From the NCBI RefSeq assembly GCF_988243305.1, contig NZ_OZ547136.1: a stretch of DNA of 64,000 nucleotides; one strand, given 5' to 3'. A model generated the notes under the pieces. The model searched no databases, had not been told where the DNA came from, and was given only the letters and a program-made list of their open reading frames with translations. Below, piece after piece: positions 613-2,882 of this stretch (its first letter is position 1; the number at the start of each line of letters is the position of its first letter). Both the position numbers and the translations under genes were made by a program.

Positions 613-663
613 GTAGAGTAAGAGGCAGGGCGTAGTCGGACTATTTCCCTGCCTCTCCTCCCC

Positions 664-697
664 GAACCGGACGTGCACCTTTCAGCGCATCCGGCTC
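664..697 (-). ncRNA. Group II intron domain V (catalytic hairpin)
   Basis: Minus strand GAGCCGGATGCGCTGAAAGGTGCACGTCCGGTTC: 34 nt, GAGC...GAAA...GGTTC pattern with a perfectly paired stem, about 50 nt before the inferred 3' splice site. Confidence 0.7.
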
Positions 698-702
698 TCC
701 AT

Positions 703-2226
703 TTAAATGCTGGCGAACGCCATTGCCACTTCTGTAAAGCGCGATGTATACGTGTTTCTGGTCTCCGTCCTCAGATAGGGATTACCTTCGGGTAGCCGCC
801 AGCGGAACAGCTTCTTGCCTTGCCCCACCAACCGGTACAGTATTTCGCCGCTGAGCTTGCCGTGATTGGTTTTACCAAATAAAACCCACGTTTTGCTCTG
901 ACCCGGTTTCGGTGATTTACACCACCACCTCATCAGGGAAGCGATACCTGTACGGTATTTGCGGGCCAGCCAGTGAGCCAGCTTCCAGAACACGACACGG
1001 TCGATATAACTGAAGACTTTGGCCTTAAAATCAACGAACTGATAGAACATGGCCCAGCCTTTCAGTTTTCGGTTGAGTTGTTCAGCCATATCGACTTTGC
1101 TTTCACTGTAGTTGCCTGATAACAGTGCTGTCAGCGATGCGGCGAAGTTTCTGGCTTTCTCCTGCGGGATCGTTGAGACCACTCGCATCTCGCCATAACG
1201 ACTGCGTTTGCGAATGATCCTGTGCCCCAGAAAGATAAAGCCGTCATTAACATGGGTGATTTTAGTCTTATCCATGTTCAGCCTGAGTTTCAGACTGCCT
1301 TCGAGCACACCCCGACACTCCTCCCTGATGGCTTCCGCCTGTGCTTTGGTGCCTTTGACGATGAGGACAAAATCATCGGCATAGCGGCAGTACGCCACCG
1401 CGGGTTTCCACTGCCAGTTTTCTCTGACCGCCGTACTTCGGCCCCGTTGGATACTGTTATTCCAGTACCACCGATCTTTTCTGGCTTTCCCGCTCAGGTA
1501 GCGCTCATGCAGGTATTGATCGAACTCATTCAGCATGATGTTCGATAATAGCGGCGATATAGCACCGCCCTGTGGCACACCTTCACTGGCCGCCCGAAAG
1601 AGACCGACATCGATATGTCCCGTCTTGATGGTTTTCCACAGCAGAGTCATGAAACGTGCGTCACTGATCCTGCGGCGTACAGCCTTCATCAGCAGTCGAT
1701 GATGTACGGTGTCGAAGTAACTGGACAGGTCGCCTTCAATCACCCAGCGTCCCCGGGTTTCACCACAGTCTGTGAGCTGTAATTTCACCGTGCGGATCGC
1801 GTGGTGGACACTGCGCTCAGGCCGGAAGCCATATGAGAGCGTATGAAAATCACTCTCCCATATCGGCTCCATCGCCATCAGCATGGCCCGCTGAACAATA
1901 CGATCCCGCAACGCGGGGATACCCAGTGGTCGCAGTTTGCCGTTGCTTTTAGGGATGTAAACCCGTCTGGCGGGCAAGGGCTGGTAGTGGCCTGAGAGTA
2001 ATTCATCCCTGAGGATTTGCAGCTCAACAGCCAGTCTGGCCTGTAGCATTGTTTTGTTCACGCCATCAACGCCGGGGGTATGGGCCCCCTTTGATGAAAG
2101 CGTGATCCGCGCCGCTTCAGCCAGCCATTCTGGTTGTGTTATCAGACGCAGCAGCCGTTGAATCCGTAGGGACGGATCGGTGGCTGCCCATGTGGCAAGC
2201 TTGCGTTGCATTTCGCTGATTATCAA
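703..2226 (-). CDS. Group II intron-encoded protein (reverse transcriptase/maturase)
   Basis: 507-aa ORF with RT motifs (PGVDGV near N-terminus, YADDFV active-site box) and a C-terminal maturase (X) region. No obvious HNH endonuclease motif. Start codon uncertain. Confidence 0.85.
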   Translation of the reverse strand: MIISEMQRKLATWAATDPSLRIQRLLRLITQPEWLAEAARITLSSKGAHTPGVDGVNKTMLQARLAVELQILRDELLSGHYQPLPARRVYIPKSNGKLRPLGIPALRDRIVQRAMLMAMEPIWESDFHTLSYGFRPERSVHHAIRTVKLQLTDCGETRGRWVIEGDLSSYFDTVHHRLLMKAVRRRISDARFMTLLWKTIKTGHIDVGLFRAASEGVPQGGAISPLLSNIMLNEFDQYLHERYLSGKARKDRWYWNNSIQRGRSTAVRENWQWKPAVAYCRYADDFVLIVKGTKAQAEAIREECRGVLEGSLKLRLNMDKTKITHVNDGFIFLGHRIIRKRSRYGEMRVVSTIPQEKARNFAASLTALLSGNYSESKVDMAEQLNRKLKGWAMFYQFVDFKAKVFSYIDRVVFWKLAHWLARKYRTGIASLMRWWCKSPKPGQSKTWVLFGKTNHGKLSGEILYRLVGQGKKLFRWRLPEGNPYLRTETRNTYTSRFTEVAMAFASI

Positions 2227-2882
2227 AGGTCTTCACCTCGTTAGGTCAGTTAATTCACGTCGCAAACACATTCAAACTGCTTCCCTTCGCCATGTAATGG
2301 GCTTTCCCCATCGCGGACTACTACGGAAGCTCCGCCAGCCAGCGCGTCATCGGAGCCATGCCCCCTTAACATCCGTCGCTGACCTTCCCCGGTTTACCTG
2401 CCTGGACTCAGGCATACTGAGGAGGCTGCCCGTCGCACTCTTTATCCTTGCTTGCCGCAAGTTGGCAGAAGTCAGCAACGCAAGTGTGATAGACGCTGCT
2501 GCCCCGGTGTTTCGCATACATGTCAAAACACCTTCGACCGGCAGTGCTTACGTATCACTGCCAGTTCCTCCTGCACGGCCTGTCAGATCACGTAGGCCGT
2601 GGTGACGTTTTCAACCCACAGAGGCGGATTAACGGGTTCATGTTCTTCAGCCTTTCAGTACTTAACCTTGAGGATCATCTCGGCTTAGTGATCTCGCCTC
2701 AATCCCCGTTGTCAGCGGGTTACATCACCCTGCGGGCATGCCGCAGGTCACTGCCGCTCAGGCTCTCCACCGTCACACCCGGTGGGATTGTTGGGTTTCT
2801 CATCGTGAGTTACCGGTTCAATATTCCAGACAGACTCGCGGTTCATTTAAGCATCCATGCCCGCCCTGAACTCCGGGCACAC

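Follow-up and report, generated by a model that had tools for sequence, protein, structure and literature searches.

The window, a stretch of 64,000 nucleotides, contains an IS629-like insertion sequence of the IS3 family (98–3677, minus strand) whose transposase gene orfB is interrupted by a group II intron (613–2882, minus strand; 2270 nt). The insertion sequence (IS) measures 3580 bp with the intron and 1310 bp without it, and is bounded by terminal inverted repeats, TGAACCGCCCCGGGTTTCCTGGAG at 98–121 and an imperfect inverted copy ending at 3677. Its first gene, orfA (3297–3623, minus strand), encodes 108 amino acids, and the region of programmed −1 frameshifting is marked by an ALIL pseudoknot detected by Rfam (RF01497) at 3226–3342 on the minus strand (121.5 bits, E=4.5e-31). 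The orfB gene is divided into a 5′ exon (2883–3300, minus strand), which ends with ...GCTGATTTTACTTACG, that is, with the codons ...A D F T Y and the G of a Val codon, and a 3′ exon (140–612, minus strand), which starts with TCAGCACATGG... and closes with a stop codon at 140–142. The inverted repeats, the orfA/orfB organization, the −1 frameshift signal and the DDE-type orfB are those of an IS629-like IS3-family element, and a near-identical interrupted copy carries the RefSeq label 'IS3-like element IS629 family transposase'. The locus consequently presents a mobile element within a mobile element, the arrangement put forward in the original prediction.

Deletion of positions 613–2882 exactly restores the OrfB reading frame, as had been anticipated, and yields 296 uninterrupted amino acids without a stop (...QLWVADFTY|..., ...ADFTY|VSTW..., with the bar at the junction). 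In uninterrupted copies of the IS found elsewhere the junction GATTTTACTTACG|TCAGCACATGG is contiguous, and the spliced 1310-bp sequence is 98.9% identical to these copies over its full length. They are annotated 'IS3 family transposase with programmed frameshift', and the restored 296-residue OrfB shows 5 amino-acid differences from one uninterrupted copy that RefSeq treats as intact. The window thus retains an intact orfA, frameshift pseudoknot, pair of orfB exons and pair of IS ends. RefSeq pipelines annotate each half of orfB as an 'incomplete' pseudogene of its own, whereas the two actually constitute one intact gene interrupted by an intron.

No target-site duplication of 3–4 bp flanks the IS, the bordering trinucleotides being gac and gtt. 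Such a duplication marks an undisturbed insertion event rather than family membership, and its lack does not show that the element is inactive. A recombinant origin of the IS and its flanks, from a chromosomal copy of the BR1220 type and an IncF-plasmid copy, was considered and is not supported: the plasmid match falls into two separate pieces, and the plasmid sequence directly beside the IS differs from that of the window.

Intron boundaries and ribozyme structure

The intron lies in sense orientation within orfB, with its 5′ end at window position 2882 and its 3′ end at 613. It begins with GTGTGCCCGG, the reverse complement of 2873–2882 and the very 5′ boundary that had been proposed, and terminates at 613 with ...CUUACUCUAC, also read as ...CTTACTCTAC. 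Its ends, 5′ GUGUG and 3′ ...CUAC, conform to the group II boundary consensus (5′ GUGYG, 3′ AY). A search of the whole 64-kb window with the Rfam family RF00029 (Intron_gpII, covering domains V and VI; gathering score 40), one of the checks suggested with the original prediction, identified 613–699 on the minus strand with a score of 64.9 bits (E=1.7e-10). Domain V occupies 664–697 (minus strand), precisely the coordinates at which a domain V-like 34-mer had been noted; its 34 nucleotides (GAGCCGGAUGCGCUGAAAGGUGCACGUCCGGUUC) display the AGC triad, a GAAA loop and a 2-nt bulge. Domain VI (613–661, minus strand) contains a bulged branch-point A at window position 619, equivalent to intron position 2264 and located 7 nt from the 3′ end.

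The upstream part of the ribozyme was delineated from the consensus that RNAalifold gives for the first 680 nt of the intron in nine relatives. The alignment covers sequences from a Yersinia pestis plasmid (95% identical), Kluyvera (92%), an E. coli plasmid (90%), Salmonella plasmids (89% and 85%), Superficieibacter (89%), and Halomonas and Rhizobium plasmids (~70%). Domains I–IVa comprise 195 consensus pairs, which are 94% paired across the nine relatives. Compensatory change is seen in 68 of the 195 pairs, compared with 19.8 ± 3.5 in column shuffles, none of 500 of which reached 68, and with 8–13 pairs in partner-sliding controls. With labels assigned by the order and size of the helices, domain I spans 2388–2877 (intron 6–495) and domain II 2334–2387 (intron 496–549), both placed by the RNAalifold consensus and pair counts, domain III spans 2279–2330 (intron 553–604) and includes helices 26–28 with compensatory change in 6 of 15 pairs, and the start of domain IV, which is DIVa-like, spans 2206–2265 (intron 618–677), all on the minus strand. 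The lack of a domain I–VI structure had been named as the observation that would speak against an intron; the structure is present, by covariation for domains I–IVa and by Rfam for domains V and VI. Domain IV is opened by a near-invariant hairpin, GAGGUGAAGACCUU, which holds the Shine-Dalgarno sequence just 5′ of the TTG/ATG at which the intron-encoded protein (IEP) starts, and is probably a site of IEP binding and translational control. The Ll.LtrB intron, too, has a domain IVa hairpin that holds a ribosome-binding site.

Taken together, the Rfam match, the IEP profile described below and the restoration of the reading frame bear out the prediction of a complete group II intron inside an IS3-family transposase gene, to which the strand, previously left unstated, can be added. 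The agreement of all the features that had been specified is far beyond what chance would give.

The intron-encoded protein

The IEP open reading frame (703–2226, minus strand) encodes 507 amino acids if read from a TTG at 2226 and 502 if read from an ATG at 2211, five codons downstream, which is the start that RefSeq assigns to the gene in other genomes. Of the 507-residue IEP with a YADD motif that had been predicted, the motif stands (position 277, numbered from the ATG), while the length holds from the TTG only and becomes 502 residues with the RefSeq start. The protein matches the NCBIfam model TIGR04416 (group II intron reverse transcriptase/maturase) with 336.9 bits for a cut-off of 300, and Pfam places RVT_1 at residues 91–337 and GIIM (maturase X) at residues 361–426 and nothing else. 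In agreement with the predicted lack of an endonuclease domain, neither Pfam nor NCBIfam detects an HNH or other endonuclease match, and the ~80 residues beyond domain X contain no recognizable endonuclease (En) domain. Relatives of the IEP in the PDB are group II IEPs, among them LtrA and the GsI-IIC RT, LtrA being the best-scoring solved structure (5g2x, E=2.8e-51).

Compared with the widespread allele WP_001189111.1, the IEP carries two substitutions, A197T and V217A, the second of which falls in the conserved PQGGxxSP block of the RT. At positions 197 and 217, A and V are likewise the residues of the Halomonas homologue, with which overall identity is 67%. These substitutions do not show that the protein is inactive.

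Identity with E.c.I4 and distribution

Comparison with catalogued bacterial group II introns, a further check that had been suggested, identifies the element as E.c.I4, whose catalogued status was missing from the original prediction. E.c.I4 belongs to the catalogue of Leclercq and Cordaux, whose Table S3 gives the coordinates of the copy E.c.I4-2b, and the name applies to introns within ≤10% nucleotide divergence of the reference intron (PMC3522654). The intron of the window and E.c.I4-2b of E. coli E24377A (NC_009801, 4848623–4850893) are of equal length and differ at 8 of 2270 positions (99.65% identity), a divergence of 0.35% that lies inside this limit; the EC958 copy differs at 3 of 2270 positions (99.87% identity). 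Toro and Martinez-Abarca assigned E.c.I4 and S.f.I1, two introns sharing 99% identity, to ORF class A, one of the classes without an endonuclease domain (PMC3552965). Because it is nearly identical to a catalogued class A member, the present IEP may be assigned to the same class. E.c.I4 is known to home into IS629, IS911, ISEc16 and ISEc31 (PMC3522654).

By megablast, 1873 of the 5426 complete E. coli genomes searched, about a third, carry the intron at ≥80% coverage; it occupies up to 20 places per genome, and 3562 chromosomal and 1932 plasmid places in all. These copies are usually annotated 'ltrA group II intron reverse transcriptase/maturase' between 'IS3 family transposase' pseudogenes. 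In PLSDB, 1519 plasmids carry the intron at ≥80% coverage, and plasmids with any match belong chiefly to Escherichia, Klebsiella, Salmonella, Enterobacter, Yersinia, Citrobacter and Shigella. A scan of GTDB species representatives for the first 28 nt of the intron yielded no more than 5 loci, distributed over 3 genomes (Kluyvera, Superficieibacter and Tenebrionibacter). The 3.6-kb unit of IS plus intron is a common repeat of E. coli chromosomes and of plasmids of several Enterobacterales genera; the chromosomal location that it occupies here is absent from the 5426 complete E. coli genomes searched.

We therefore consider it very probable that 613–2882 (minus strand) is a full-length, structurally intact E.c.I4, a IIB-like intron of ORF class A with an endonuclease-less RT/maturase, at its normal homing site in an IS629-like orfB. 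The element is already known: the intron, its class, the missing endonuclease domain and the preference for IS3-like transposase genes have all been published, and the locus carries little weight as a discovery for that reason.

Target site and exon pairing

In this copy the insertion point follows the DFTY codons of the IS629 orfB. Intron 5′ junctions were read in 14 copies with a readable junction, comprising the window, other E.c.I4 copies and divergent relatives from Escherichia, Klebsiella, Enterobacter, Salmonella, Yersinia, Tenebrionibacter, Superficieibacter, Halomonas and Rhizobium. All 14 lie directly after the ...W..D.TY codons in orfB of an IS3-family element, which belong to the region of the first catalytic Asp, and the DNA sequences differ among the 14 sites. 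The same codon position is occupied by the ~70% identical relatives on Halomonas and Rhizobium plasmids. T is the first base of every 3′ exon read, and the host IS is visibly degenerate at the site in at least two cases, the 90% identical E. coli plasmid copy and one Tenebrionibacter locus.

The exon-binding site EBS1 is probably the sequence 5′-CGUAAG-3′ at 2547–2552 on the minus strand (intron 331–336), displayed in the loop of a covarying hairpin (intron 318–346) whose stem, helix 19, shows compensatory change in 8 of 9 pairs. This loop forms six of six Watson–Crick pairs with CUUACG, the hexamer that ends the 5′ exon. The corresponding loop of the Halomonas intron, CAUAGG, pairs at 6 of 6 positions with its target CCUAUG, and that of Y. 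pestis, GAUAUG, at 5 of 6 with CCUAUC. Over 8 variants, loops score 39 with their own targets and 35.7 ± 1.6 with permuted ones (p ~0.04), which is consistent with the assignment of intron 331–336 as EBS1. At some of their sites, including those in IS911, near-identical E.c.I4 copies form only 4–5 of 6 pairs, with mismatches at −1 and −5, so that recognition must tolerate mismatches or use other contacts. For EBS2, the tentative candidate is 5′-ACGUCA-3′ at 2603–2608 on the minus strand (intron 275–280), which could pair with GAY-N-U of the Asp codon region at −14 to −9; own and permuted targets of this candidate do not differ statistically (p ~0.33), and alternative EBS2 loops at intron 290–301 and in the hairpin at 157–162 are likewise without support.

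A different EBS1, the heptamer UGUGGGU (intron 263–269), was considered as a 'universal' wobble-pairing sequence, as it matches 53 of 56 positions with eight targets, 10 above the next heptamer. It was rejected: its 3′ part is engaged in a small covarying hairpin (helix 16), an alternative stem built from UGUGG/CCACG is incompatible with helix 17, for which covariation support is good, and the canonical loop at 331–336 varies along with its targets.

The codon position shared with ~70% identical class A relatives suggests site specialization across the lineage, and is the one mildly new observation here. We give even chances to the broader proposal that the whole class A lineage is a specialist parasite of IS3-family transposase genes, which reads the DNA coding for the conserved catalytic-core motif W..D.TY and tolerates EBS1/IBS1 mismatches at the wobble positions −1 and −5. 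Part of this proposal has been published before, for E.c.I4 in Enterobacteriales. If this proposal is true, one intron could hop between IS629, IS911 and remoter IS3 members, across Gamma- and Alphaproteobacteria.

Proposed mechanism and arrival at the locus

From group II intron biology, the intron would be co-transcribed within the orfAB mRNA of the IS. The IEP would be translated from domain IV, bind the intron and promote lariat splicing at the branch-point A2264, joining ...UUUACUUACG|UCAGCAC..., so that the frameshifted OrfAB transposase could be made. By analogy with such introns, splicing may in this way preserve a functional transposase. The excised lariat–IEP particle would then find empty IS3-family orfB sites, chiefly through pairing of EBS1 (CGUAAG) with IBS1, and reverse-splice into the DNA of the empty site. 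Because the IEP lacks an endonuclease, we propose that nascent DNA at a replication fork would prime cDNA synthesis, the route demonstrated for RmInt1, and mobility by fork priming is to be read as an analogy with that intron. Experiments on E.c.I4 splicing or mobility were not found in the searchable literature. In 1994, Ferat, Le Gouar and Michel reportedly described self-splicing introns of group II in the mobile DNA of E. coli. The locus may offer a system for studying En-independent retrohoming and the targeting by an intron of a site conserved at the protein level.

Fork-primed retrohoming of RmInt1 prefers the lagging-strand template (PMC8914252). GC skew is positive on the plus strand in the core of the window, and the window also carries the rpsF and mgtA leaders. 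The order and spacing of these leaders match those of E. coli K-12, and together with the skew indicate that the sense strand of the intron corresponds to the leading-strand template, the orientation that is not preferred in retrohoming of the RmInt1 type. Since the orientation is the non-preferred one for fork-primed homing, the intron was probably already part of the IS, or of the surrounding island, on arrival and did not home at this position. The strand of a single copy is uninformative on homing bias, as the intron could have been brought in by the IS or the island.

Alternative interpretations

Among other readings of the locus, one to which we grant a limited probability is that the intron acts mainly to restrain its host IS: inefficient splicing would keep transposase low, and intron and IS would persist together while harming the host little. 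The idea has been raised for RmInt1 in ISRm2011-2 (PMC4238363) and for introns in mobile elements generally (PMC7306698). The position of the intron is in line with it: insertion directly after the region of the first catalytic Asp codon means that unspliced mRNA cannot yield an active DDE enzyme. Such a role is compatible with the presence of an intact E.c.I4 at its homing site rather than opposed to it.

We regard as unlikely that the copy is a dead passenger, which no longer splices or moves and simply knocks out the IS629 transposase, leaving the IS a fossil. The two private substitutions of the IEP, A197T and V217A, one of them in a conserved RT block, might be read in this way, as might the gac...gtt flanks without target-site duplication, a hint of later rearrangement, and several genomes harbour inactive or single E.c.I4 copies (PMC3522654). 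However, the IEP reading frame is full length, every ribozyme domain is intact, the intron departs from the copies carried by other genomes at only 3–8 of 2270 positions, EBS1 matches IBS1 perfectly, and orfA, the frameshift pseudoknot, the orfB exons and the ends of the IS are all preserved.

The reading of the RT gene as that of a retron, or as a defence-associated RT, that inserted into the IS, and as no part of an intron, is already refuted and has almost no probability left: the matches to Drt3a, retron St85 RT and Drt2 in NCBIfam that would favour it are weak and sub-threshold, at 50–53 bits against cut-offs of 200–390, whereas TIGR04416 exceeds its own (336.9 against 300), and the GIIM maturase domain, domains V and VI, the covarying domains I–III and the exact restoration of the exons all speak for an intron.

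Comparison with known systems

The closest known systems are E.c.I4 itself and S.f.I1 of Shigella flexneri, the 99% identical pair of class A introns, with which the present intron shares its sequence, length and kind of target, a specific position in IS3-like transposase genes. The E.c.I4 IEP likewise has 502 residues and is 2–3 substitutions away from the one described here. The differences are of no substance, A197T and V217A being private to this copy and its chromosomal location distinct.

RmInt1 of Sinorhizobium meliloti resembles the present intron in having an endonuclease-less IEP and in residing in the transposase gene of an IS, ISRm2011-2. It differs in belonging to ORF class D/IIB3, whereas the intron here is of class A, and in its host IS; the fork-primed mechanism has been demonstrated for RmInt1, whereas for E.c.I4 we infer it.

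The Ll.LtrB intron of Lactococcus lactis, of subgroup IIA, provides in LtrA the top structural relative of the IEP, and the NCBI pipeline names the gene of the present protein ltrA. In contrast to the IEP here, which has no recognizable En domain, LtrA is a protein of 599 amino acids with C-terminal DNA-binding and En domains.

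Ends and surroundings of the IS629::intron unit

The IS629-like element that carries the group II intron E.c.I4 in its orfB (98–3677, minus strand) is flanked by gac on one side and gtt on the other (95–97 and 3678–3680), and lacks a target-site duplication. Since IS3-family elements normally generate 3–4 bp target duplications, the absence of one here hints at a subsequent rearrangement or deletion at one end of the unit. The adjoining DNA (3678–20000) has no counterpart in the 5426 complete E. coli genomes searched, its first 196 bp excepted, and shows negative GC skew. Its genes code for an MFS transporter, an amidohydrolase, a YgeY-like hydrolase, a diaminopropionate ammonia-lyase, a sigma-54 activator, an IS630 transposase and a protein with an integrase domain (17322–18503); ARAGORN detected no tRNA gene in the entire window. 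This stretch looks like a genomic island that adjoins the rpsF region in a chromosome of the E. coli/Shigella kind.

Within it, an 88-bp segment (3874–3961) that holds the palindrome TCTCTTGATCAGGAGATCTGATCAAGAGACAG looks like the leftover of an IS end; its sequence resembles the inside end of IS50. The segment matches, at 97.7%, a plasmid stretch overlapping the 3′ portion of a truncated ‘IS4 family transposase' annotation, and many E. coli plasmids carry this counterpart close to copies of IS629::E.c.I4.

Annotation and other RNA features

At loci L001, L002, L004 and L018, the NCBI pipeline enters the orfB exons as two ‘incomplete' or ‘frameshifted' IS3 transposase pseudogenes, which are in fact the halves of a single intact gene split by the intron. 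Further Rfam matches in the window that exceed the gathering score comprise STnc100 (14464–14662), the RpsF leader (20828–20912), ES239 (32583–32705), STnc450 (36057–36114), two copies of naRNA4 (46499–46577 and 52740–52817) and the Mg2+ riboswitch of the mgtA leader (62867–62982), all of which are ordinary for enterobacteria.

Relatives and remnants on plasmids

Relatives with 85–89% identity to E.c.I4 occupy IS3-like orfB sites on Salmonella Infantis plasmid pN18S2039 (L011, 1496–3737) and on a Salmonella Newport plasmid (L010), their IEP genes being unannotated in both. The L011 intron begins with GUAUA, not GUGUG, and carries internal deletions, and is therefore probably in decay. On many E. 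coli plasmids of ~92–95 kb (among matches H87–H91 and H139–H147, one of them from O157:H7 str. SS17), the sole piece of the intron is a remnant of 76 nt from its 5′ end, with 94.7% identity.

Intron hairpins and the intron-encoded protein

The heptamer UGUGGGU (2614–2620; intron positions 263–269) was considered as an EBS1-like element and rejected. It pairs at 53 of 56 positions, G–U wobbles included, with the last seven exon nucleotides of most of the target sites examined; helix 16, a small hairpin with covariation, takes up its 3′ part, and the pairing appears to be a coincidence, or possibly a secondary contact.

Numbered from the ATG, the IEP of the window has T197 (1622–1624) and, inside the conserved PQGGxxSP RT block, A217 (1562–1564), in place of the A and V, respectively, that are present in both the common allele WP_001189111.1 and the Halomonas homologue. 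The spacing of its Shine–Dalgarno sequence better fits initiation at TTG 2226 (507 aa) than at the RefSeq ATG 2211 (502 aa). This Shine–Dalgarno sequence is included in the hairpin GAGGUGAAGACCUU (2226–2239; intron positions 644–657), which is close to invariant from E. coli through Halomonas and Rhizobium and is likely to be an element for both IEP binding and translational control, similar to DIVa in Ll.LtrB.
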